64,000 bases of DNA from Nitrososphaerales archaeon (GTDB taxonomy: Archaea; Thermoproteota; Nitrososphaeria; Nitrososphaerales; Gagatemarchaeaceae). The DNA is taken from assembly GCA_032906765.1 (NCBI GenBank), contig JAJTZB010000003.1, positions 77,072-141,071 of the forward strand, given 5' to 3'. Both the position numbers and the translations under genes were made by a program. Position 1 is the first letter of the stretch. Each line of letters begins with the position of its first letter. Below are positions 823 to 27,685 of this stretch, piece after piece. The notes beneath the pieces were generated by a model, which searched no databases, was not told the DNA's origin, and saw only the letters and a program-made list of their open reading frames with translations.

Positions 823-2538
823 ATGGTCGAGAGCCTCAAGCACGACGTCGTAATCGTTGGCTCCGGGATCGCCGGCCTTCGAGCTGCGATAGAGGCGGCA
901 CGGACCGGGGGAGGGAAGCTGGACGTCGCCGTGGTCACGAAGGTCCAGGCCATGCGTTCCCACTCCGTGAGCGCCGAGGGCGGGACTGCAGCAGTGCTCT
1001 ACCCTGAGCTAGGAGATTCCCTCGAGTCGCACGCCTTCGACACCGTGAAGGGCTCCGACTACCTGGCCGACCAGGACGCAGTCGAGAGGTTCGTCGACGA
1101 GATGCCGCATGAAATCTACCAGCTCGAACACTGGGGTATGCCTTGGTCGAGGAGGGAGGACGGCAGGATAGCTCAGAGGTGGTTCGGTGGGTACAGCTAC
1201 CCAAGGGCGACCTTCGCAGAAGACAAGGTCGGCTTCTTCGAGATGCAGACCCTCTACGACACCGCGACCAAGTACGACAACATCACGTTCTACCAGGAAT
1301 GGTTCGCCACATCCCTCATCGCTGAGAACGGCGAGTTCAGGGGTTTCACAGCGATCGAGAAGAAGACGGGCGACTTCGCGGCCATACTGGGCAAGGCTGG
1401 GATAATCGCCACCGGAGGTTCCGGGAGGCTGTACAGCTTCGCGACCTACGGCTACAGCTCGACACCAGACGGGATGTACATCGCACTTAGGGGCGGAGTG
1501 CCGCTCAAGGACATGGAGTTCATACAGTTCCATCCGACCGGGCTCGTACCTTCTGGCATACTGCTTACCGAAGCGGCCAGGGGGGAAGGGGGCATACTCC
1601 TAAACAAGGACGGCGAGCGGTTCATGAAGAAGTATGCGCCAGAGAAGGTCGAACTGGCATCGAGGGACGTCGTCTCGAGGGCAATCATCACGGAGGTGGA
1701 GGAAGGCAGGGGATTCAAGGACGAGGCGAGCGGGCTTGACTACGTTCACCTTGACGTGACGCATCTGGGGGCCGAGAAGGTAAAGCAGAGGCTGTCAGGA
1801 ATCAGGGAGATTGCGATAAAGTTCAGGGGTATAGACATCGTCGACACCCCTGCACCAATCAGCCCCGTCTGCCACTACGTGATGGGTGGGATAGACACGG
1901 ACGTGAACGGAGCGACCAAGGTGAAGGGTCTGTGGTCGGCCGGAGAGGCTGCGTGCGTCAGCATCAACGGCGCCAACAGGTTGGGCGCAAACTCGACAGC
2001 GGAGTGCCTCGTGTGGGGAAAGATAACGGGCGCCGAGGCTGCTAGCTACGCAGCGCGGGTTCAGAGCCGGAGCTCACCGGGCGAACAGGTGATGCTCGAG
2101 GAGCGGAGGGTCTTTGACGACATCTTCCACGGGAAAGGAGGCGCCAACCCGTACGAGATAAGGGACAAAGTCCAGAAGGCGATGGACAAAGGGGCCTTCG
2201 TCTACAGGACCGGCGAGGGGCTCTCGGAGGCGCTGAGGGCGATAAGAGAGCTGAAGAAGACGGACTTTAGACACTGCGACGACAAGAGCAGAGTGTACAA
2301 CACAAACCTGAGCGATGTCTTGGAGGTTGAGTCGATGCTAGAAGTCGCTGAGGTGGTCCTCGCTGGAGCGCTCGCACGGACTGAGTCGAGGGGGGCGCAC
2401 GCCCGGAGGGACTATCCCAAGAGAGACGACGAGAACTGGCTGAAGCACACGCTCGCCTCTTGGACCCCTGACGGCCCCAGGCTCGAATACTCCCCTGTTA
2501 CAATAACGAAGTACCAGCCTGCGGAGAGGCACTACTGA
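823..2538 (+). CDS. sdhA: Succinate dehydrogenase / fumarate reductase flavoprotein subunit
   Basis: 571 aa. It has an N-terminal FAD fold ([14 protein letters not shown]), the covalent-FAD His context ([10 protein letters not shown]), and HPTG, RLGANS and ESRGAHAR motifs typical of SdhA/FrdA. Confidence 0.93.
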
Positions 2539-2573
2539 ATCTGTATTAACGTGGTGGGATTGGTGGTAGAGAG

Positions 2574-3032
2574 TTGAGGGGAGAGGGGCGCGCTACCAAC
2601 AGGCGCGGGCTGGTAGGCTGGCTCAACCCGTATCACTACAACCTGGAGAGGTGGGCCTACGTCTTCCAGCGCCTCACTGGCATAGTGATCTTCCTGTACG
2701 TCATCGGCCATATCGGAGACACGAGCTTCTTCGTCGGCGGCCCATTGGGGGCGGGGCCAAACCAGTCGACCTGGGCCCTCGACCTCTCTGTCACTGAGAA
2801 CGTGGTCGGGCACTTCATTCTCGCTGCGACAGCGACCGTAGTCGTCTTCCACGGTCTCAACGGGATCAGGCTCATCTTGGCCGAGTACGGCATAATATTC
2901 CAGAAGCCGTCGCCGATCGAGTACCCCTACAAGCCCAAGGGGTTGAGGACAATGCAGAAGCATCTCATCTGGCTTGCAATCGTGCTAGCGATTGTCGCAG
3001 GTCTGTGGTCGGGGACGATCCTGTTCGGGTGA
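2574..3032 (+). CDS. Succinate dehydrogenase membrane anchor subunit (SdhC-like)
   Basis: A 152-aa hydrophobic protein with several predicted TM helices, lying between sdhA and sdhB. The call rests on position and hydrophobicity only. Confidence 0.55.
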   Translation: MRGEGRATNRRGLVGWLNPYHYNLERWAYVFQRLTGIVIFLYVIGHIGDTSFFVGGPLGAGPNQSTWALDLSVTENVVGHFILAATATVVVFHGLNGIRLILAEYGIIFQKPSPIEYPYKPKGLRTMQKHLIWLAIVLAIVAGLWSGTILFG

Positions 3033-3388
3033 TTTGCACGAGGGAATCAAGACTGATGCAGCTCCAGTACGCGACAGCCGTCGTGGCCCTCTTCCTTGTC
3101 GGGCTCCACCTCTTGATGCAGGGAGTGCTGGTCCCGTACGGCACTGCTCTCTCCTTCCAGAGGGTTCTCTCGCTCTACAGGGACTGGATAAACGGGAGCC
3201 TCCTGGAGATACTACTCATCGTCGTCCTTGCCCACGGCTTCAACGGCATGAGGGTCGTCCTCGTGGAGTGGAAGCAGACGAGGGGTTGGACCAGGTGGGT
3301 GAACAGAGGAACACTGGTGGCAGCCCTTCTGGTCATGGCGTACGGAACGAGGACGGTGATACTGGCTGTGGTAGGGGGAGTGAGCTGA
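3005..3388 (+). CDS. Succinate dehydrogenase membrane anchor subunit (SdhD-like)
   Basis: A 127-aa hydrophobic protein that overlaps the preceding anchor gene and precedes sdhB. The call rests on position and hydrophobicity. Confidence 0.5.
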   Translation: MVGDDPVRVICTRESRLMQLQYATAVVALFLVGLHLLMQGVLVPYGTALSFQRVLSLYRDWINGSLLEILLIVVLAHGFNGMRVVLVEWKQTRGWTRWVNRGTLVAALLVMAYGTRTVILAVVGGVS

Positions 3389-3413
3389 GACGTCGCCAGA
3401 GCTGAGGCTGAGG

Positions 3414-4166
3414 GTGCAGAGGTTCAACCCTTTCGTGGACTCGAAACCGCGCTTCGAGGAATTCCTTGTCCCGAAGAGGGACGGAATGACCGTGCTGGAC
3501 GCAATCCTCCACGCCAGGGACTACGAAGACCACTCGATCGGAGTGAGGTTCTCGTGCAGGATGGCCTCGTGCGGCTCCTGTGGGATGAAGATCAACGGTG
3601 TCCCAAGGCTGGCCTGCTACACACCGATCAGTGAGCTGAGGACCAAAGCTGTAACTGTGCAGCCGATGGACAACTTCCCCATAATCAAGGACTTGGCCAC
3701 GGACCTCACCGGCTTCTTCCAGAAGCACCGCGAGGTGATCCCCCACATAGTGAGGGGGGACGTGCAGGAGCTCGACAACGCCACGTCGGACTACGTGATG
3801 ACCCCGAAAGAACTGGATTCGATTCTGCAGTTCACTTACTGCATAAAGTGCGGTCTCTGCACTTCGTCCTGCCCCACGGTCGCCACGGACACACTCTACC
3901 CTGGCCCTCAGGCGCTCGCGCAGGCCTACAGGTACCTGATGGACGTCAGGGACGAGGGAGGGGAGGAGAGGCTGAAGATGCTCGACTCTGAACACGGCGT
4001 CTTCAGGTGTCACTACGCCGGGTCGTGCTCTGCAGTCTGCCCGAAAGGGGTGGACCCTGCGCTCGGAATCCAGCTGCTCAAGAGGCACGTGATGGCAGCC
4101 AAGCCCCCGCGGAGGAAGGGGGAGGGGGCGAAGCTCGCGACCAAACCAGAGGCAAGGCCCCAGTAA
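3414..4166 (+). CDS. sdhB: Succinate dehydrogenase iron-sulfur subunit
   Basis: 250 aa. It has a 2Fe-2S motif (CRMASCGSCGMKINGVPRLAC) and ferredoxin-type clusters (CIKCGLCTSSCP, CHYAGSCSAVCPKG). Confidence 0.9.
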   Translation: MQRFNPFVDSKPRFEEFLVPKRDGMTVLDAILHARDYEDHSIGVRFSCRMASCGSCGMKINGVPRLACYTPISELRTKAVTVQPMDNFPIIKDLATDLTGFFQKHREVIPHIVRGDVQELDNATSDYVMTPKELDSILQFTYCIKCGLCTSSCPTVATDTLYPGPQALAQAYRYLMDVRDEGGEERLKMLDSEHGVFRCHYAGSCSAVCPKGVDPALGIQLLKRHVMAAKPPRRKGEGAKLATKPEARPQ

Positions 4167-4574
4167 CTATTCACTAGCGTCTTCGAACTTCGCGCCGAGG
4201 TAGCCGTAGGCCCCTGTTTTCAGCACCTTCATTCCCAGGAGCGCGCATTTTATCCTCGACGGGCCCAGCTCCGGGTTCCCGAGCATCTCGAGTACGTTTT
4301 CCTTCGAGAGCTGCTTGACCCATTCCAGAGGCTTGCCCTTCGCGAGTTCTGTCAGCATCGAGGACGAGGCCAGGCTGATTGCGCACCCCTTGCCAGTGAA
4401 CCTGATCTGTTCTATCTTGTTCCCCTCACCGACCTTGATCTGCATCGTCACCTCGTCTCCGCAGAGCGGGTTGGTGTCGTGCGCCTCGATGTCGTGCGGC
4501 TCGAGGCTGCCGAAGTTCCTGGGATTCCTGTAGTAGTCCAGGATGATCTCCTTGTAGATGTCGGCGCTGCTCAA
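4167..4574 (-). CDS. sufU: SufU/IscU-like Fe-S cluster scaffold protein
   Basis: YYRNPRNFG, NPLCGD, GKGCAIS and RIKCALL motifs of the NifU-N/IscU/SufU family are present. The likely TTG start at 4574 overlaps the sufS TGA. The longer ORF in the track (to 4685) overlaps sufS. Confidence 0.8.
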   Translation of the reverse strand: MSSADIYKEIILDYYRNPRNFGSLEPHDIEAHDTNPLCGDEVTMQIKVGEGNKIEQIRFTGKGCAISLASSSMLTELAKGKPLEWVKQLSKENVLEMLGNPELGPSRIKCALLGMKVLKTGAYGYLGAKFEDASE

Positions 4575-7258
4575 AGCTTGAAGACCTTCCTCGCCTTCTC
4601 CAGCCCGTCCCTGAGGGAGTCCACGTCGTCGTACGAATTGTAGATGTAGAAGCTCGCCCTGCTCGTGGCTGCGACATTGAGCCAACGCATCAGCGGCTGG
4701 GCGCAGTGGTGCCCCGACCTGATTGCAATGCCCTCTTCGTCCAAGATGGTCGCCAGGTCGTGAGGGTGGACGTCCGCAAGGTTGAACGAGACTACGCCGC
4801 CTCTCTGCCTGACATCACTCGGTCCGTACGGTTCGAACCCCTTGACCTTCCCCAGCACATCCAGAGCGTACTTCAGAAGCTTGACCTCGTGCTCCCTCAC
4901 GTTCTTCATCCCTATGGACGAGAGGTAGTCGATCGCTGCGCCCAGTCCGATCGCGTCAGCGATGTTGACTGTCCCGGCCTCGAACTTGTACGGGACGTCG
5001 TTCCAGGTGGCGTGGTCCAGGAACACTTCTCTAATCATCTCCCCGCCTCCGTGGAACGGCTCCATCGCCTGGAGCAACTCCTTTCTGCCGAAGAGCACTC
5101 CTATGCCAGTCGGGCCGAGCATCTTGTGGCCTGAGTTATGAAGTAGAATCGGATAGAAGCCTCCGAAGAATCGCTCGCTGCCAGGAACAGAGACGTCGTA
5201 AACAGTGTGTTCTCCCACGGCCCTTACATCGCGCACCTTGACGACGCCGAAGTCTCCGTTGGCGAACTGTTTGTATCTCGCTAGTATGGTCTGCGCTCGG
5301 TCTTCGATCAGTCCCTTGTGGGTAGATTCAATCCATCGCACGACTTCAAGTATTGCCTTTCGCGAGGCGCGCTTGCGGACACTCCGCAGGGTCGATGAAA
5401 CCTCCGAGTTGTGCCTTGGCTTCGTTAGCCTGTATGCCTCCTTCAGAGCATCGACGCAGAGCGACTTGTCCCGGGACGCATCTCGCTTCAGGAGGGGTCG
5501 ATAGAATTCCCGAAGTTGCACCAATTCGCTTCTCTGAATCACCAGCGAGTACTGACTATTCCATGTTCGACGACGTGATTTTGCGAATCCTAGAGTATTG
5601 GAGATTCCGTGCAGCTTAAGAAGCCAGGACAGCTCGCTGATGAGCCTCTTTGACACGGATTTTGCTACTATCCTGTAGTCCTCGTTCTTAGAACCATCAC
5701 CTCTGAGATATCCTTTCAGGAGTTCGGCCACAAGTTCAGCACGAACCCTCCACACGAAGTCAGGGAGGTGCTTGTTGATGCTCGTTCCACATGATGATTT
5801 GAAGAATTCGAACCATTTCTTGTTGTTGAATGAAATGTTGGTAGTGTGATTGTTGTGGTTGTACCAGAGGTGAGAAGCTATCTTCTCGGAACCTGCGACA
5901 CCCACTGGTTGGGTCCGGCCAGAGTACTTCGTAGCAGTCTTGCGACTGATTCCGGCGGTCGTGGCAATTTGCATCATCGAAGCACCGTGCGCGACCTTCA
6001 CTTTTTCGAATGCGTTCGAGTAGTAATGGATTGGTTCTAGACTTTCTATCAACACGCGCGCATCGTTTACGAATGTGGTTTCGTCCTCGCCGAAGGTGAG
6101 AGAGACCCTGTTGTCTCTGGGGTCGACCGAACCCTCCGCAAGATAATAACCGACGAGCCGCATCAGTTCTCCTGTAATCTCCACATTTTCTCTTGTCAAG
6201 TTGCCATGATGTGTGAACTCCAGTGGAAATTCTCGGGAATCTCCGAGTCCGGTTCTGCTTTGTCTGTTGAGCGTAACCAGAAAGTCCCCCTTCCGCAGCT
6301 TGGAGACCTGCTCGTCCACGATGTCACCGTCGCGCCACACGTAGACCGAATGATACCCGGTAGCACGAACCGGCAAGGCACTGTTCTCGTAGCTTACCTC
6401 GTAGATACGATCAAGATGAGTCAGTGCGCCGTTGACGCGCTCAAATTTCGCCTTCGCATCGGTGCCCAGGGTCAGAATGGACAAGTCTTTGCCGCGATTG
6501 TAGAGTTCGACTGCTTCTTCGATGGGAACTAGTTGAATTTTTCCGGCGGACTCGATTAGTACAGGGGTGTCTCCAGTAACCGAGAAAGCTAGGAAGTCGC
6601 AACCAAGCACCGAGACGTCGACAGGCATGTGGGGGACGGACTGCGCAGCGTCGACGACCGTGACTGCGCCCGCCTTCCTCGCCTTGGAGCAGAGCGCGGC
6701 AACGTCGTTTATCGTTCCCAGGACGTTCGAACACTGCGTCAGCGCGACTACCGCTGGTGAGGACCCCATCAGCTTCTCGAACTCCTCGATGTTCAACGTG
6801 CCGTCTGAGTTCAGGCCGACGAACTTCAGGTTGGCTCCCTTCTTCTTAGCTAGGAGCTGCCAAGGAACGATGTTACTGTGGTGCTCCATGAGTGTTGTGA
6901 CTATTGTGTCGCCGCGCCCCACGCCACTCTCCCCCCACGCGAACCTGACGAGATTGATCGACTCTGTGGTGCCGCGCGTGAAGACGACCTCTGCTGGCTT
7001 GCATCCGACGAACGCTGCTGTCTTCCCTCGCGCCCCCTCGTACGCCTCTGTGGCCTCCTCTCCTAGCGTGTGAACCGAGCGGTGGACGTTCGAGTTGTAT
7101 CGGGAGTAGTAATCGACGAGTGCGTCGATCACCTGCTTCGGCTTCTGGGTTGTGGCTGCGTTGTCGAGGTAGACGAGGCGCTTCCCGTGGACCTTCCGCT
7201 TCAGGATCGGGAAATCGGAACGGACTTTCTCCAGTTCAAGTGTGCCTGATTCGAGCAA
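4571..7258 (-). CDS. sufS: Cysteine desulfurase SufS interrupted by a 483-aa intein (precursor 895 aa)
   Basis: The N-extein (aa 1-225) and C-extein (aa 709-895) join to give DFLAF|SGHKMLGPTGIGVL, the class-V aminotransferase PLP-lysine motif. RSGHHCAQP is in the C-terminal part. The combined extein length is 412 aa. Confidence 0.9.
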   Translation of the reverse strand: MLESGTLELEKVRSDFPILKRKVHGKRLVYLDNAATTQKPKQVIDALVDYYSRYNSNVHRSVHTLGEEATEAYEGARGKTAAFVGCKPAEVVFTRGTTESINLVRFAWGESGVGRGDTIVTTLMEHHSNIVPWQLLAKKKGANLKFVGLNSDGTLNIEEFEKLMGSSPAVVALTQCSNVLGTINDVAALCSKARKAGAVTVVDAAQSVPHMPVDVSVLGCDFLAFSVTGDTPVLIESAGKIQLVPIEEAVELYNRGKDLSILTLGTDAKAKFERVNGALTHLDRIYEVSYENSALPVRATGYHSVYVWRDGDIVDEQVSKLRKGDFLVTLNRQSRTGLGDSREFPLEFTHHGNLTRENVEITGELMRLVGYYLAEGSVDPRDNRVSLTFGEDETTFVNDARVLIESLEPIHYYSNAFEKVKVAHGASMMQIATTAGISRKTATKYSGRTQPVGVAGSEKIASHLWYNHNNHTTNISFNNKKWFEFFKSSCGTSINKHLPDFVWRVRAELVAELLKGYLRGDGSKNEDYRIVAKSVSKRLISELSWLLKLHGISNTLGFAKSRRRTWNSQYSLVIQRSELVQLREFYRPLLKRDASRDKSLCVDALKEAYRLTKPRHNSEVSSTLRSVRKRASRKAILEVVRWIESTHKGLIEDRAQTILARYKQFANGDFGVVKVRDVRAVGEHTVYDVSVPGSERFFGGFYPILLHNSGHKMLGPTGIGVLFGRKELLQAMEPFHGGGEMIREVFLDHATWNDVPYKFEAGTVNIADAIGLGAAIDYLSSIGMKNVREHEVKLLKYALDVLGKVKGFEPYGPSDVRQRGGVVSFNLADVHPHDLATILDEEGIAIRSGHHCAQPLMRWLNVAATSRASFYIYNSYDDVDSLRDGLEKARKVFKL
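5135..6583 (-). mobile_element. Intein with LAGLIDADG homing-endonuclease domain inside sufS
   Basis: It starts SVTGDTPVL (block A, Ser1), has TGYH (block B TxxH), and carries LAGLIDADG motifs (LVGYYLAEGSVD, LLKGYLRGDGSKN). It ends ILLHN and is followed by Ser+1. It looks AT-richer than the flanking extein DNA. Confidence 0.85.
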
Positions 7259-7276: not shown

Positions 7277-7585
7277 CTAGACCTCGAGGAAAATCGTCCC
7301 GTCCTGTATTTTAACATTGAAGACCTGAAGGGGGACGGTCGCGGGAGGGTTCATGACCTGGCCAGACCTCAGGTCGAACTGCGACAAGTGCAGCGGGCAG
7401 ACGACGCTGCCTTCAAGCATCATTCCCAGGCCGAGGTCTGCCTCCTCGTGCGTGCAGGTTCCGCTGAGTGCGTGCACCTCTCCGCCTATCTTCGAGAGCA
7501 GGACGTGGGTCCCGTTCACGTCCACCGTTGCCATGGAACCTTCGGACAGGTCGTCGAACCTCATCGCTGGGACGAACTCCGCCAA
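7277..7585 (-). CDS. Rieske [2Fe-2S] domain protein
   Basis: 102 aa with the CTHEEADL...CPLHLSQF Rieske cluster-binding motifs. It sits between sufD and sufS. Confidence 0.8.
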   Translation of the reverse strand: MAEFVPAMRFDDLSEGSMATVDVNGTHVLLSKIGGEVHALSGTCTHEEADLGLGMMLEGSVVCPLHLSQFDLRSGQVMNPPATVPLQVFNVKIQDGTIFLEV

Positions 7586-7589
7586 ACGA

Positions 7590-9002
7590 TCACCGGTATT
7601 TGTAGTGGCGCTCGAAGATGTCCTCTGACTGCTTTACCTCAGGGATGGCCTCGCCCGTGAGAGCTATCAGCGTCTCCCTGTCCACCAGCCTCTTCTTCTC
7701 ACCGTTCCACTTTCCTTCTATCATGAACCTCGCCCCCTCCCGAGTCTGCTCGACTGGGACGCGGGACAGGACGGGCTCGAAGAAGCCGAGGACCACCATC
7801 CTCCTAGCCTCGTCGAGAGGAAGACCCCGCGCCATCAGGTAGAAGAGCTGCTCCTCGTCAACCTGCGCCACGGACGCGGAGTGGGTCGCCTTCACCTCGT
7901 TCGTGAGTATCTCCAACCCCGGCACTGCGTCGGACCTCGCCGTCCTTTCGAGTATCATCGCGTGGTGGGCCAAGTACGCGCGGGAGTTCTTCGCCGAAGG
8001 CCCGATCCTTATCATTCCCTTGAATATCGACTGCGACTCGCCCTTCAGGACGCCCCTCGCCTGCGTCGAGCCGCTTGAGTCCGGGGAGTTGTGGACCAGG
8101 TTGGACTCGAAGTCGTACCGCTGTTTCCCGTCAGTGAAGAATATCTCGAATCCCTCGGCTTGCGACCCCCTGCCGTCGAGGAAGAAGTTCATCCTCGACC
8201 GGACCACCGCAGACCCGAGCGAGAGTGCGCTGACCGTGGCCTTCGCATCGTTCATCACCTCTATCGCCCTGTTCGACAGGTGGACGGCTTGGTCGTCAAG
8301 TAGCTGGATGGAGCTGAAGTCCACGTGTGCGCCAGGCCCGGCGTGGACCTCCACAGTGGAGGCGACGAGCGACGGCCCCGACGCGTGGGCCGAGTAGAGC
8401 TCCTCGAGGAATCCAACCTTGGATCCCTCCTCCGCGTAGATGATCGTCTGCTCGAGTACGCTCGTCGAAGGGTCGTTGGTGACGAGCATCTTTCTCAGCG
8501 GGTGCGAGACCTCGACGCCTTTCGGGACATAGACAAAGGTTCCGGAGTTGAAGAACGCGTTGACCAGGGCCGCGAACCTATCATCCTCTGACTTCACCAT
8601 CTTGAGCGAAAAGACGCGCCTCACCAAGGCCTCGTCAAGCACAAGAGCTTCGTGGAGGGGGAGGAGCTTGACGCCCGTGGCCGAGAGGGACTCCGCCAGT
8701 TCTGCGTGTACCTCCGTCTCGTTGCCCTGGAGCAGGATGTTGTTCTCCTTGCCAGTGAGATAGTCCTTGAAGAACGTCCTGAGGTCGACCTCCGACTTTT
8801 GCGGTTTTGCCCCGAACCCGGAACCGTCGAAGCTGGAGATGTTGGCGTACTTCGTGTAGAGCGGGTTCTTCTCCGGGGGCAGGGAGGCGAACGATTGGAA
8901 CGACTTTAGCCTGAACTCCGTCAGCCAAGACGGCTCCTTGAGGTAGGCGGACAGCGCCCTCACGGCTTCCTCGTTGAATTCGCCCATCAGTTGCTGAGCC
9001 AT
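7590..9002 (-). CDS. sufD: Fe-S cluster assembly protein SufD (SufB/SufD family)
   Basis: 470 aa of the SufBD beta-helix family, with a C-terminal EEQLFYLMARGL motif. It lies downstream of sufB in the suf operon. Confidence 0.8.
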   Translation of the reverse strand: MAQQLMGEFNEEAVRALSAYLKEPSWLTEFRLKSFQSFASLPPEKNPLYTKYANISSFDGSGFGAKPQKSEVDLRTFFKDYLTGKENNILLQGNETEVHAELAESLSATGVKLLPLHEALVLDEALVRRVFSLKMVKSEDDRFAALVNAFFNSGTFVYVPKGVEVSHPLRKMLVTNDPSTSVLEQTIIYAEEGSKVGFLEELYSAHASGPSLVASTVEVHAGPGAHVDFSSIQLLDDQAVHLSNRAIEVMNDAKATVSALSLGSAVVRSRMNFFLDGRGSQAEGFEIFFTDGKQRYDFESNLVHNSPDSSGSTQARGVLKGESQSIFKGMIRIGPSAKNSRAYLAHHAMILERTARSDAVPGLEILTNEVKATHSASVAQVDEEQLFYLMARGLPLDEARRMVVLGFFEPVLSRVPVEQTREGARFMIEGKWNGEKKRLVDRETLIALTGEAIPEVKQSEDIFERHYKYR

Positions 9003-9032: not shown

Positions 9033-11519
9033 TTAACCCACTGTGTTCGTCATTTCGAGCTGCATCAGCCTGTTGAATTCCACCGCGTAGGCCATCGGAA
9101 GCTCCTTCGTGAACGGCTCGAGGAACCCGTTGACGACCATGCTGAGGGCGTCGTTGTCGGAAATTCCTCTGCTCATCAGGTAGAAGAGCTGTTCCTCCCC
9201 GACCTTCCCAACGCTCGCCTCGTGCGTGACGGTTGCGTCGTCCTCATTTATCTCCATGTAAGGATACGTTGCTGTCGTACTCTTCTCGTCGATGAGTAGG
9301 GCGTCGCACCTTACGCTCGACTTCACGTTCGTCGCGCCCTTCGCTATGTGCAGCAGGCCCCTGTAAGCCGTGTGGCCGCCGTCCTTTGATACCGACCTCG
9401 AGATTATCTTCGACGTCGTGTCCCTCGCGAGATGGATTGCCTTTCCTCCGGTGTCCTGGACCTGGCCGGCGCCTGCGTAGGCCACGGAGATTATGTCTGC
9501 CTTGGCCCTCGGGCCAAGAAGGTAGATCGAAGGGTACTTCCTCGTCAGCCTCGAGCCTCCGTTGAAGTCGACCCAAGAGACCGTCGCATCTTCGTAGGCG
9601 TGCGCTCTCTTGGTGACAAGGTTGAGCACGTCCCTTGACCAGTTCTGCAGCGTCGCATACTTGACCAGCGAACCCTTCTTCGCCACTATCTCGACTATGG
9701 CCGAATGGAGGGACTGCGACGAGTATACGGGCGCTGTGCAGTTGTGCACTGCGAACCCTTTGACCAGGTACGAGTTTTCCCGTTCCACTTCCAAGTTGTA
9801 TACCAGGTCTCTGTAGGGCTCCTTGAGTACCCGCTTTATCGGCACGAAGAAACGATTACCCACCCTGCGCACTTCACTCCACTTGGTGTTCTCGGTGTAC
9901 TGGACGACATACTGGTCGCGCCTCTCGATGTCCCTGCCACCAATCTTGTCCTTCGAACCCTTGCGGACTGCGATGTTCGCGAACAGCCCATCCCTAGCGA
10001 GGAGCTCCTGGAGCTGGAACGCAAGAGTCCGACTCGCGGTCGACGCTCTAACCATGAGCGAGTCGTGCTTCTTCTTGTACCTGTTACCGTCACCCTTGAG
10101 GTAGTAGTTCAGGAGGAGCTTCTGTCTCTCGTTCGGCAATCGCATGATTGCTTCGGAGAGCACCTTGTTCGCAGCACCGGTGCCGCAATGGGCATTGAAC
10201 AAGTCAATCAGCATCTTTGAGTATGTGATGACACAGAAGTACTGGCCTCTGGCCTTGTGCATGCTGGCCTTCTCCCCGAGAGACCTGATGAGAGCTACCA
10301 ACTCGGTTGCGAGATTCTTCTCGGATTCGGACTTGCCGAAGCTGAATTGCGCAACGTCGAGATTGAGCGCGCTATTGAACGACACTGAACCCTCAGCGAG
10401 ATAGAGTCCCAGAATCTTGAGATGTGTGTCTGTAAACGTGGGGTCGTCCTTTGCCTCGGTTGGGGCAACGTACACTATGAAGTCGCCGGCTTCAAGTTGC
10501 CCGGCCTCGATGTACTTTGGCGATGCCTTGGTCAGTTTCTCCGTAGAAGCCTCAGGCAGCCATCCGTTCCTCCCCCTTCTGGTCGCGACCTCGCTCTCCT
10601 TCACAGCGAGCACAGGGTGTTCGGGTGTCAACCTGAACTCATTTCCGCGTGACAGGGGCACGATTGTCAGCATGACGCCCTCGTGAGGATGAATGAATTT
10701 CTTGGTCACTGTGGCCATTCGTCCCGACTCCGCGACGACACTCTCGTTGGTCTCCACTGCAAGAATGGGCTCGAGGGTGTAGCCCTTGCTCACGAGTTCG
10801 TCGGCCGGCAGGCATCCCTCGATGTAGTTAACCTCGCTGTATGGCTCCCCGATTATCAGGGTCCTCTCGAACTGGCCCATGTTCTTCTCGTTGATCCTGA
10901 AGTACGCTTGGAGCGGCATGTTGACCTTCACGCCCTCGGGCACGTGGACGAAGCTGCCGGCGCTCCAGACTGCGGTCTGCAGCGCAGCGATGTAGTTGTC
11001 CTGGTACGGAACCACAGTCCCGAAGTACTTCTTCATGATCTCCGGATACTCCTTCAGCGCCGTGACTGTGTCTGTGAAGACCACTCCCTGCTTGGAAAGC
11101 TCGCCCTGGATGCTGTGGTAGACGGCCTCGCTCTCGTAGATCGCTCCGACGCCGGCGAGGAACTTCTTCTCCGCTTCCGGGATACCCAGCTTGTCGTACG
11201 TGTTCCTGATGTAGTCTGGCAGCTGGTCCCAAGAAGCCGCTGCGCTCTTCGTCGGGCTGGCGTAGTAGTAGAAGTTCTGATAGTCGATGTCGCCGAGCTC
11301 TGGAGCCCAAGCAGGCACCTTCATGTCAAGGAAGTACTTGAGCGCCTTCAGCCTGATCTGTTCCATCCAGGCAGGCTCGTCGTGCAGCCTTGAGATCTCC
11401 TGCACAACCCTCTCGCTCAGGCCCTTGACGCCCTTCACGGCGTAGGCGTCAACCGGGTCGCTGAAGCCGTACTTCTCCTTGTAATCTTCTGTGGCTAGAT
11501 TGACTTTGGTAGATGCCAT
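9033..11519 (-). CDS. sufB: Fe-S cluster assembly protein SufB interrupted by a 358-aa intein (precursor 828 aa)
   Basis: The exteins (aa 1-235 and 594-828) join to give NYIEG|CTAPVYSS, a conserved SufB motif. The C-terminal EEQLFYLMSRGI motif is present. Confidence 0.92.
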   Translation of the reverse strand: MASTKVNLATEDYKEKYGFSDPVDAYAVKGVKGLSERVVQEISRLHDEPAWMEQIRLKALKYFLDMKVPAWAPELGDIDYQNFYYYASPTKSAAASWDQLPDYIRNTYDKLGIPEAEKKFLAGVGAIYESEAVYHSIQGELSKQGVVFTDTVTALKEYPEIMKKYFGTVVPYQDNYIAALQTAVWSAGSFVHVPEGVKVNMPLQAYFRINEKNMGQFERTLIIGEPYSEVNYIEGCLPADELVSKGYTLEPILAVETNESVVAESGRMATVTKKFIHPHEGVMLTIVPLSRGNEFRLTPEHPVLAVKESEVATRRGRNGWLPEASTEKLTKASPKYIEAGQLEAGDFIVYVAPTEAKDDPTFTDTHLKILGLYLAEGSVSFNSALNLDVAQFSFGKSESEKNLATELVALIRSLGEKASMHKARGQYFCVITYSKMLIDLFNAHCGTGAANKVLSEAIMRLPNERQKLLLNYYLKGDGNRYKKKHDSLMVRASTASRTLAFQLQELLARDGLFANIAVRKGSKDKIGGRDIERRDQYVVQYTENTKWSEVRRVGNRFFVPIKRVLKEPYRDLVYNLEVERENSYLVKGFAVHNCTAPVYSSQSLHSAIVEIVAKKGSLVKYATLQNWSRDVLNLVTKRAHAYEDATVSWVDFNGGSRLTRKYPSIYLLGPRAKADIISVAYAGAGQVQDTGGKAIHLARDTTSKIISRSVSKDGGHTAYRGLLHIAKGATNVKSSVRCDALLIDEKSTTATYPYMEINEDDATVTHEASVGKVGEEQLFYLMSRGISDNDALSMVVNGFLEPFTKELPMAYAVEFNRLMQLEMTNTVG
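9741..10814 (-). mobile_element. Intein with LAGLIDADG homing-endonuclease domain inside sufB
   Basis: It starts CLPADELV (Cys1), has TPEH (TxxH block B), and carries LAGLIDADG motifs (ILGLYLAEGSVS, LLNYYLKGDGNRY). It ends FAVHN and is followed by Cys+1. Confidence 0.88.
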
Positions 11520-11564: not shown

Positions 11565-12344
11565 TTATGGGATTGGATGCTGTACCTCCTCCTCTTCCTT
11601 GTACCCAGTGATCCAGTTGTATCCCCTCTCCTCCAGAAGCCTTGACAGGTCTTCGCTCCCTGACTGGATTATCCTCCCCTGGTACATGACGTGAACGAAC
11701 TGGGGCTTCACGTACTTCAGGATCCTCTGGTAGTGCGTAATCAGCAGGATTCCGGTTTCCGGGCCCGCGACCTTGTTGATTCCTTCGGCGACGATCCTGA
11801 GCGCGTCGATGTCTAGGCCCGAATCTGTCTCGTCGAGGACCGCGAACTTCGGCTGCATCAGGGCCATCTGGAGGATTTCCGCCCTCTTCTTCTCGCCTCC
11901 TGAGAAACCTTCGTTCAGATACCTAGTGAGGAACGAATTGTCCATGTCGAGCATCTTCAGCTTCTCCGCCACTGCTTCCCTGAAGTCGAAGATGGTGGGC
12001 GGCTCCTTCGGGTTTGTTGTGTGAGAGGCGTTGAAGGCCGCCCTCAGGAAAGAGAACATGCTTACGCCTTGGACGGAGACGGGGTACTGGAACGCAAGGA
12101 AGAGCCCCCTCTTGACCCTCTTGTCCGTGCTGAGGGCCAGAACGTTTTCGCCGTCAATCAGGACTTGGCCCGACGTCACGTGGTACTTCGGGTGGCCGAG
12201 TAGTGTGTACGCGAGCGTGCTCTTGCCGGAGCCGTTCGGCCCCATGAGTGCGTGGGTCTCGCCCTGCTGAACGGTCAGGTCGACTCCCTTCAGAATCTCC
12301 TTGCCCTCCACGGACGCGTGGAGGTCCTTGATCTCCAGTTTCAT
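11565..12344 (-). CDS. sufC: Fe-S cluster assembly ATPase SufC
   Basis: 259 aa. It has Walker A (GPNGSGKST), the ABC signature (FSGGEKKR) and Walker B (AVLDETDSGLD). Confidence 0.93.
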   Translation of the reverse strand: MKLEIKDLHASVEGKEILKGVDLTVQQGETHALMGPNGSGKSTLAYTLLGHPKYHVTSGQVLIDGENVLALSTDKRVKRGLFLAFQYPVSVQGVSMFSFLRAAFNASHTTNPKEPPTIFDFREAVAEKLKMLDMDNSFLTRYLNEGFSGGEKKRAEILQMALMQPKFAVLDETDSGLDIDALRIVAEGINKVAGPETGILLITHYQRILKYVKPQFVHVMYQGRIIQSGSEDLSRLLEERGYNWITGYKEEEEVQHPIP

Positions 12345-27580: not shown

Positions 27581-27685
27581 CGGGCCTGGTGGGATTCGAA
27601 CCCACGACATGCTGGTTAAGAGCCAGCCGCTTTGGTCGATTTCCTCTAACCTGGCTTCTCGCGCATCGCTCTGAGCCACAGGCCC
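27581..27685 (-). tRNA. tRNA-Lys(CUU) with two putative short non-canonical introns (D-loop, and the position 25-27 region)
   Basis: Removing 16 nt (27655-27670) and about 14 nt (27630-27643) leaves a 75-nt cloverleaf: GGGCCUG UG GCUC AGCCAGGUUA GAGC G GCUGG CUCUUAA CCAGC AUGUC GUGGG UUCGAAU CCCAC CAGGCCC G. All stems are Watson-Crick paired and the anticodon is CUU. Confidence 0.6.

Follow-up and report, generated by a model that had tools for sequence, protein, structure and literature searches.

Intein host proteins are concentrated among replication proteins, recombination proteins and ATPases. In the archaeal inteins of solved structure, namely TliVMA and PhoVMA (7qss, 7qst), PI-PkoII (2cw7) and PI-PfuI (1dq3), whose hosts are V/A-ATPase, DNA polymerase and ribonucleotide reductase, a Hint splicing domain that begins with a cysteine is split by a double-motif LAGLIDADG homing endonuclease. 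Mycobacteria and archaea also have SufB (Pps1) inteins, which belong to the SUF pathway of iron-sulfur (Fe-S) cluster biogenesis; these too bear a LAGLIDADG domain and occupy a conserved-motif site. Here we describe an intein in another protein of that pathway, the cysteine desulfurase SufS, encoded on a 64,000-nucleotide stretch of DNA from a Nitrososphaerales archaeon (assembly GCA_032906765.1, contig JAJTZB010000003.1, positions 77,072 to 141,071; hereafter the window). We are highly confident that the SufS insert is a canonical class 1 intein with serine nucleophiles and an embedded double-motif LAGLIDADG homing endonuclease. Host protein and insertion site appear to be new, and the mechanism is ordinary.

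Compared with these described systems, the SufS intein has the same split Hint architecture as the solved archaeal inteins, which are its best structural matches (template modelling (TM) scores of 0.59-0.69, query-normalised) at only 13-16% sequence identity. It differs from them in its host, in having serine rather than cysteine at position 1, and in an extra helix-turn-helix (HTH)-like insert of three helices. The window also carries a SufB intein in the same operon (Table 1), which differs from the SufS element in its host protein, its length and its cysteine nucleophiles. The two are 27% identical across a 149-residue part of the endonuclease domain (E = 5e-7), a partial resemblance that, together with the SufS host, places the SufS intein outside the SufB/Pps1 family.

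InBase is not known to hold an entry for a SufS intein. Full-text searches of the journal literature returned no paper on inteins of SufS, of other cysteine desulfurases or of enzymes dependent on pyridoxal 5'-phosphate (PLP) in general, and the article text of Novikova et al. (2016) mentions no SufS intein. The novelty is one of missing description and not of missing sequence, as relatives are already in public databases, some with an automatic intein label: the JGI pipeline names several of them '...cysteine desulfurase/intein/homing endonuclease', and NCBI lists SufS-intein proteins as 'aminotransferase class V-fold PLP-dependent enzyme', with the intein unflagged.

The evidence for the host protein comes from comparing the precursor with its spliced form. 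The precursor is a 100% match to GenBank MDV3277642.1 ('MAG: aminotransferase class V-fold PLP-dependent enzyme [Nitrososphaerales archaeon]'), and the same protein was found in SRR15058747 as assembled independently by Logan. Uncut, it matches Aminotran_5, Intein_splicing and LAGLIDADG_3 in Pfam, and aligns to the sufS model TIGR01979 with 569.7 bits in two stretches, broken at residues 226 and 709. Excision of the insert joins ...GCDFLAF to SGHKMLGPTG... and yields a protein of 412 amino acids (aa) whose match to TIGR01979 is unbroken from model position 2 to the last, 403, and scores 593 bits (cut-off 475). This spliced product has the length of intein-free orthologues (411-412 aa, the closest of which are 83-84% identical) and aligns without a gap over the junction to the SufS structures 8d8s (E = 2e-147) and 5xt5 from Bacillus subtilis. 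The sequence-only reading, which had been made without any database search, had the insert's limits exactly right (483 aa, with SVTGDTPVL starting at residue 226 and HN ending at 708), and the motif that it expected from excision, DFLAF-SGHKMLGPTG, is the one recovered.

In B. subtilis SufS, Lys224 carries PLP and Cys361 is the nucleophile (PMC4934914). Both align with the window SufS, whose C-extein holds the PLP lysine three residues past Ser+1 as well as the catalytic cysteine in RSGHHCAQP. By this alignment, the intein lies three residues ahead of the Schiff-base lysine, and Ser+1 opens the S-G/S-H-K loop. The TIGR01979 score, the SGHK lysine and the catalytic cysteine loop identify the host as a type II cysteine desulfurase of the SufS/SufU type, encoded alongside sufBCD and the sulfur acceptor sufU.

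The insert itself matches the Pfam family Intein_splicing (PF14890) with 41.9 bits (cut-off 35.8) over its residues 17-483, and LAGLIDADG_3 (PF14528) with 43 bits (cut-off 22.5). Searching the PDB by sequence, we found that the TFIIB mini-inteins 5o9i and 5o9j match both Hint lobes and that PI-PkoII matches the endonuclease domain. An AlphaFold model from the single sequence was unusable (predicted local distance difference test, pLDDT, 38), and a model built from a 45-sequence alignment (AF2) was used in its place (pLDDT 93.6, predicted TM score 0.91). Foldseek searches of the PDB with this model returned, in order, the TliVMA intein 7qss (TM 0.69/0.76), PI-PkoII, PI-PfuI, more VMA inteins, PI-SceI, mini-inteins and I-DmoI. 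The Pfam, PDB and Foldseek matches thus all show the Hint fold, and the intein call made from the letters alone stands.

In terms of anatomy, the insert combines Ser1 at the head of block A (S1-VTGDTPVL), the TxxH of block B, a C-terminal H482-N483 followed by Ser+1, the Hint fold, and an excision that restores a conserved host, as in class 1 inteins. The two LAGLIDADG helices each end in a catalytic acid, and the fold matches obtained with Foldseek are those of double-motif LAGLIDADG endonucleases. Block A, block B (TGYH), both LAGLIDADG motifs and the terminal HN, all noted before any search, could each be located. The coordinates of these features and of the surrounding operon are gathered in Table 1.

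Table 1. Features of the sufS precursor gene, its intein and the suf operon, in window coordinates (aa, amino acids; ORF, open reading frame).
Feature	Coordinates	Strand	Remarks
sufS precursor ORF	4571..7258	-	895 aa; TTG start; stop codon included; from the ORF list
N-extein, residues 1-225	6584..7258	-	C-terminal DFLAF; sufS model positions 2-218; translation verified
Intein, precursor residues 226-708	5135..6583	-	483 aa; Ser1...His482-Asn483
C-extein	4571..5134	-	first residue Ser+1 of SGHK; stop codon included; gap-free alignment to 5xt5
Hint splicing domain, N-terminal lobe, intein aa 1-125	6209..6583	-	beta-rich in AF2 model; aligns to TFIIB mini-intein 5o9i
Block B, T75-G-Y-H78	6347..6361	-	
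LAGLIDADG homing-endonuclease domain and helical linker, intein aa 126-443, limits approximate	5255..6208	-	Pfam LAGLIDADG_3; Foldseek
LAGLIDADG motif 1, LVGYYLAEG, aa 143-151	6131..6157	-	catalytic Glu150
HTH-like three-helix insert within the endonuclease domain, intein aa 183-236	5876..6037	-	
LAGLIDADG motif 2, LLKGYLRGDG, aa 288-297	5693..5722	-	catalytic Asp296
Hint domain, C-terminal lobe, intein aa 444-483	5135..5254	-	block F VYDVSV (Asp463); block G FFGGFYPILLHN
sufC	11565-12344		
sufB	9033-11519		
SufB intein	9741..10814	-	358 aa; LAGLIDADG-bearing; YIEG|CLPADE...FAVHN|CTAPVY; Cys1/Cys+1
sufD	7590-9002		
Rieske [2Fe-2S] protein, sufD-sufS interval	7277..7585	-	102 aa; same place in syntenic relative L003
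sufU (NifU_N)	4167-4574		TTG start

To evaluate the distribution of the element, we used both the intein and the whole precursor as queries. A word-index search with the intein only gave one other SufS host among the matches listed, and an exhaustive search of 1.84 billion representative proteins with HMMER likewise gave a single SufS host (P0037) in the best 150 intein matches. The whole-precursor search recovered 21 clusters (at 90% identity) of full-length intein-bearing SufS, 879-899 aa long, from Nitrososphaerota/Thaumarchaeota and Bathyarchaeota (the latter including KPV63897.1 of Bathyarchaeota BA1), the 20 beyond the window's own coming from NCBI, JGI, ENA and Logan. All 21 share the insertion site F|S...HN|S(G/A)HK, so that the allele, whose possible cataloguing the sequence-only reading had left open, is not unique to the window. 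In a pattern scan of 185,579 GTDB species genomes, we found 5 SufS-intein loci, all in Nitrososphaerota, along with ~22 primase loci.

Across the 21 alleles, the splicing residues S1, T75, H78, D463, H482, N483 and Ser+1 are invariant, and the intein keeps a length of 476-485 aa even where identity drops to 42%. The endonuclease acids are nearly as constant, with Glu at position 150 in 20 alleles and Asp at 296 in 19; both are present in 18, the window included. Mean pairwise identity is 0.52-0.56 in the endonuclease core and 0.48-0.65 in the Hint lobes. This stable length and equal conservation of the core indicate that both the predicted splicing and the predicted endonuclease activity are under purifying selection.

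Conservation within the intein is lowest in the HTH-like insert (0.32 identity). It had been picked out by eye as HTH-like, and support for the claim is weak: the AF2 model places short helices at 187-197, 203-210 and 214-221, and HTH-family matches under the Pfam cut-offs fall at the same position in six of eight orthologous segments, but the Pfam search returned no HTH-family match for the window's own segment. The segment is probably an accessory DNA-binding module, judging from the model and these matches.

Intein-bearing and intein-free alleles occur side by side among relatives. None of the 120 best matches to the spliced extein (401-423 aa, 74-84% identical) carries an intein, and intein-bearing alleles, whose exteins are at most 78% identical to the window's and so fall below the best intein-free homologues, are interspersed with intein-free ones when exteins are clustered. 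A syntenic relative (L003) keeps the order sufC-sufB-sufD-Rieske-sufS-sufU with both sufS (411 aa) and sufB (470 aa) uninterrupted, at 84% identity to the window for SufS and 93% for SufB. Its intein-free site sequence is GACTTTCTCGCCTTCTCGGGTCACAAGATG, and the empty site reads GACTTTCTCGCCTTC^TCGGGTCACAAGATG, identical at 25 of 30 positions to the rejoined flanks of the window. Such sporadic presence and absence in close relatives, together with intact empty target sites, is a distribution of the homing type.

Base composition points in the same direction. The intein had been called more AT-rich than its exteins by eye, and counting bears this out: its GC content is 51.9% against 59.8% in each extein, a difference that lies nearly all at third codon positions (GC3 of 0.60 against 0.77 and 0.82; 0.48 against 0.50 at positions 1 and 2). 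The pattern recurs in the five other hosts, all from GTDB (intein GC3 0.56-0.63, extein GC3 0.79-0.95), making the extein range 0.77-0.95 over all six hosts examined, with the intein range unchanged. The lower GC of the intein fits horizontal movement, and a long stay in one genome would hardly account for a deficit at synonymous sites that lasts over diverged hosts.

Since presence and absence alternate among relatives, the endonuclease core is conserved and both acids persist in 18 of 21 alleles, the SufS intein fits an element that is still homing or was doing so until recently. Several observations weigh against this view. The 3 of 21 alleles that lack one catalytic acid show nuclease decay in some lineages, and pairwise identities of exteins and inteins are correlated (r = 0.74), which may mean that vertical descent is substantial and homing perhaps rare. 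In addition, all SufS-intein sequences come from metagenome assemblies, and we infer splicing and DNA cleavage for this intein as for every other member of the family. We are less sure that the nuclease is still active than we are of the intein's identity.

The element's predicted mode of action follows that of other class 1 inteins. The sufS gene would be translated as an inactive precursor, which would have no PLP pocket because the 483 intein residues come between the Ser-Gly-His-Lys loop and the strand that ends in DFLAF. Splicing would begin with an N-to-O acyl shift by Ser1 at the Phe225-Ser226 bond; the resulting ester would be attacked by Ser+1, cyclisation of Asn483, assisted by His482, would release the intein, and an O-to-N shift would then leave a native peptide bond in the 412-aa SufS. 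The released intein is expected to cut sufS alleles that lack it, as a site-specific endonuclease acting at ...GCCTTC^TCGGGTCACAAGATG..., and repair templated by the intein-bearing copy would spread the element (homing).

Evolutionarily, the closest relatives outside the SufS alleles are inteins of the catalytic primase subunit PriS (Pfam DNA_primase_S), not SufB inteins. Their hosts include Nanoarchaeota, Woesearchaeota, Pacearchaeota and other archaea (e.g., proteins P0002-P0008 and P0038-P0048; loci L010-L032 from GTDB DPANN genomes, L004 and L035), with a GC content of ~0.3. In full-length alignments PriS inteins are 30-41% identical to the SufS intein, and they have near-identical termini (SVTGDTP... 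and ...FFGGxYPILLHN), and their junction, KF|S...LLHN|SG(N/S/G/H)KGFH, resembles that of SufS (F|SG(N/S/H)(K/R) against F|SGHK), although the host, an archaeo-eukaryotic primase, is not homologous to the PLP enzyme SufS. Most PriS inteins are shorter (440-447 aa against 483 aa) and lack the HTH-like insert, showing an alignment gap at this 54-residue segment. An insert of 648 aa, unusually long, is reported for one primase locus (L020). Literature searches returned no paper on PriS inteins, and in a 2015 genome survey (PMC4760082) archaeal primase is drawn among 'critical proteins with no inteins'; primase inteins appear to be undescribed so far.

In neighbour-joining trees (distance trees only, rooted with RFC inteins, 200 bootstraps, with GDP-mannose dehydratase inteins left out), the SufS inteins are monophyletic in 192 of 200 bootstraps and form a clade with the primase inteins in 169, and the primase inteins form a group of their own, to the exclusion of SufS, in 21. 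The primase lineages nearest to the SufS inteins are P0007 and P0005 (130/200). P0007 has the junction YF|S...HN|SGHRGYH and lies on an archaeal contig of 56% GC, next to GINS. Because the SufS clade is nested within the PriS inteins, we lean, by a modest degree, towards a single jump of the intein from the primase site to the unrelated gene sufS.

We also considered whether the HTH-like insert marks the nearest primase relatives, as four (P0040, P0044, P0046 and P0048) of eight insert-bearing, primase-like relatives suggested. The bootstraps lend this grouping no support: SufS inteins and the three insert-bearing primase inteins in the tree (P0040, P0044 and P0048) came together in 0 of 60. 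Nor do we claim an endonuclease recognition site shared between PriS and SufS: their target DNAs match at 8-15 of 30 positions, and these matches are mostly forced by the common F-S-G-x-K residues. The shared junction motif may reflect either off-target cleavage or junction residues required for splicing.

As to how such inteins travel, the 175-kb IMG/VR contig UViG_3300027675_000004 (L034, GC 0.31) encodes at 4001-5332 a primase of archaeo-eukaryotic type whose SGSKGFH site, the same as in PriS, holds a related intein. The presence of a primase intein on this putative viral contig suggests that viruses could be carriers of the PriS-type family between hosts. P0005 is encoded on a short-ORF region of its own (L035; ENA ERZ27248082 k141_229177), where its neighbours are ten short ORFs with no Pfam match, and this locus resembles a fragment of a virus or plasmid.

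The SufB intein of the window bears on how far the SufS element could have been put to use by its host. SufB after intein removal has 470 aa, just as long as SufB of L003, which has no intein. Of the five other SufS-intein loci examined, two have an intein in SufB as well: L009 at the same site as the window (62% identical) and L006 at another, near extein residue 380. In L005, L007 and L008, as in L003, SufB has no intein. SufB and SufS inteins occur independently among relatives. No third intein was found when the ORFs of the window were scanned with an intein hidden Markov model.

It would be tempting to see in this pair a joint checkpoint on Fe-S assembly that has been retained, sulfur donor and scaffold both having to splice first, with the SufS copy acquired through a rare jump of a PriS intein; we hold this to be improbable. 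Marginally more doubtful still is the related proposal of a domesticated, conditionally splicing intein which, with the SufB intein, would gate Fe-S biogenesis post-translationally and give active SufS only in permissive conditions. For such regulation speak the insertion at the cofactor-binding motif, which would make SufS activity strictly dependent on splicing, the occurrence of two inteins in the window's suf operon and in the two loci above, the retention of a full-length SufS intein over a long time, and, going by its title in the reference list of PMC4760082, the work of Topilina et al. (2015) on the SufB intein of M. tuberculosis (Mtu), whose splicing is reported to be stress-sensitive, as a sensor of oxidative and nitrosative stress. 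However, the SufS nucleophiles are Ser1 and Ser+1, with no cysteine, which makes the known redox-trap mechanisms inapplicable, and a sporadic distribution in which the nearest relatives are intein-free, one of them for both inteins, is expected of a selfish element and not of a needed regulator. The independent assortment of the two inteins likewise argues against gating, and the conserved endonuclease residues fit mobility.

A sufS pseudogene with a decayed or non-splicing insertion, or else a chimeric assembly, for which the origin of the sequence in a metagenome-assembled genome might speak, can be dismissed as extremely unlikely, given a frame intact across 2.7 kb, the conservation of all splicing residues, the position as the sole sufS of a complete suf operon (the window contains no second sufS), and the recurrence of the same architecture in the independent Logan assembly, the 20 further clusters and the 5 GTDB species genomes.

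Read as a canonical, Ser1/Ser+1 class 1 intein with its endonuclease, the SufS element has several implications. A metabolic enzyme whose PLP-lysine motif houses a well-conserved intein, one that is probably still mobile, widens the list of intein host proteins, and the SufS/PriS family offers a fairly clean case of intein transfer among non-homologous genes, from the SGxKGxH of primase to the SGHK of SufS. Archaea in which both SufB and SufS need splicing provide a system in which to ask whether splicing limits Fe-S cluster biogenesis. Finally, a natural, cysteine-free Ser1/Ser+1 intein with a defined junction (F|SGHK) is of potential use in protein engineering.

Beyond the intein, the ARAGORN program detected no tRNA in the whole window, and Rfam placed one at 27581..27652 (minus strand) with 30.4 bits (gathering score 29), an anticodon loop of CU-CUU-AA and an acceptor stem in which two pairs are non-standard, apparently a Lys-CUU tRNA. 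The probable TTG start of sufU overlaps the sufS stop codon in the four bases TTGA (4571..4574), and the same 4-base overlap is found in L003; an ORF without an ATG listed from 4685 is probably too long. Downstream of the suf operon, succinate dehydrogenase genes occupy 823-4166.

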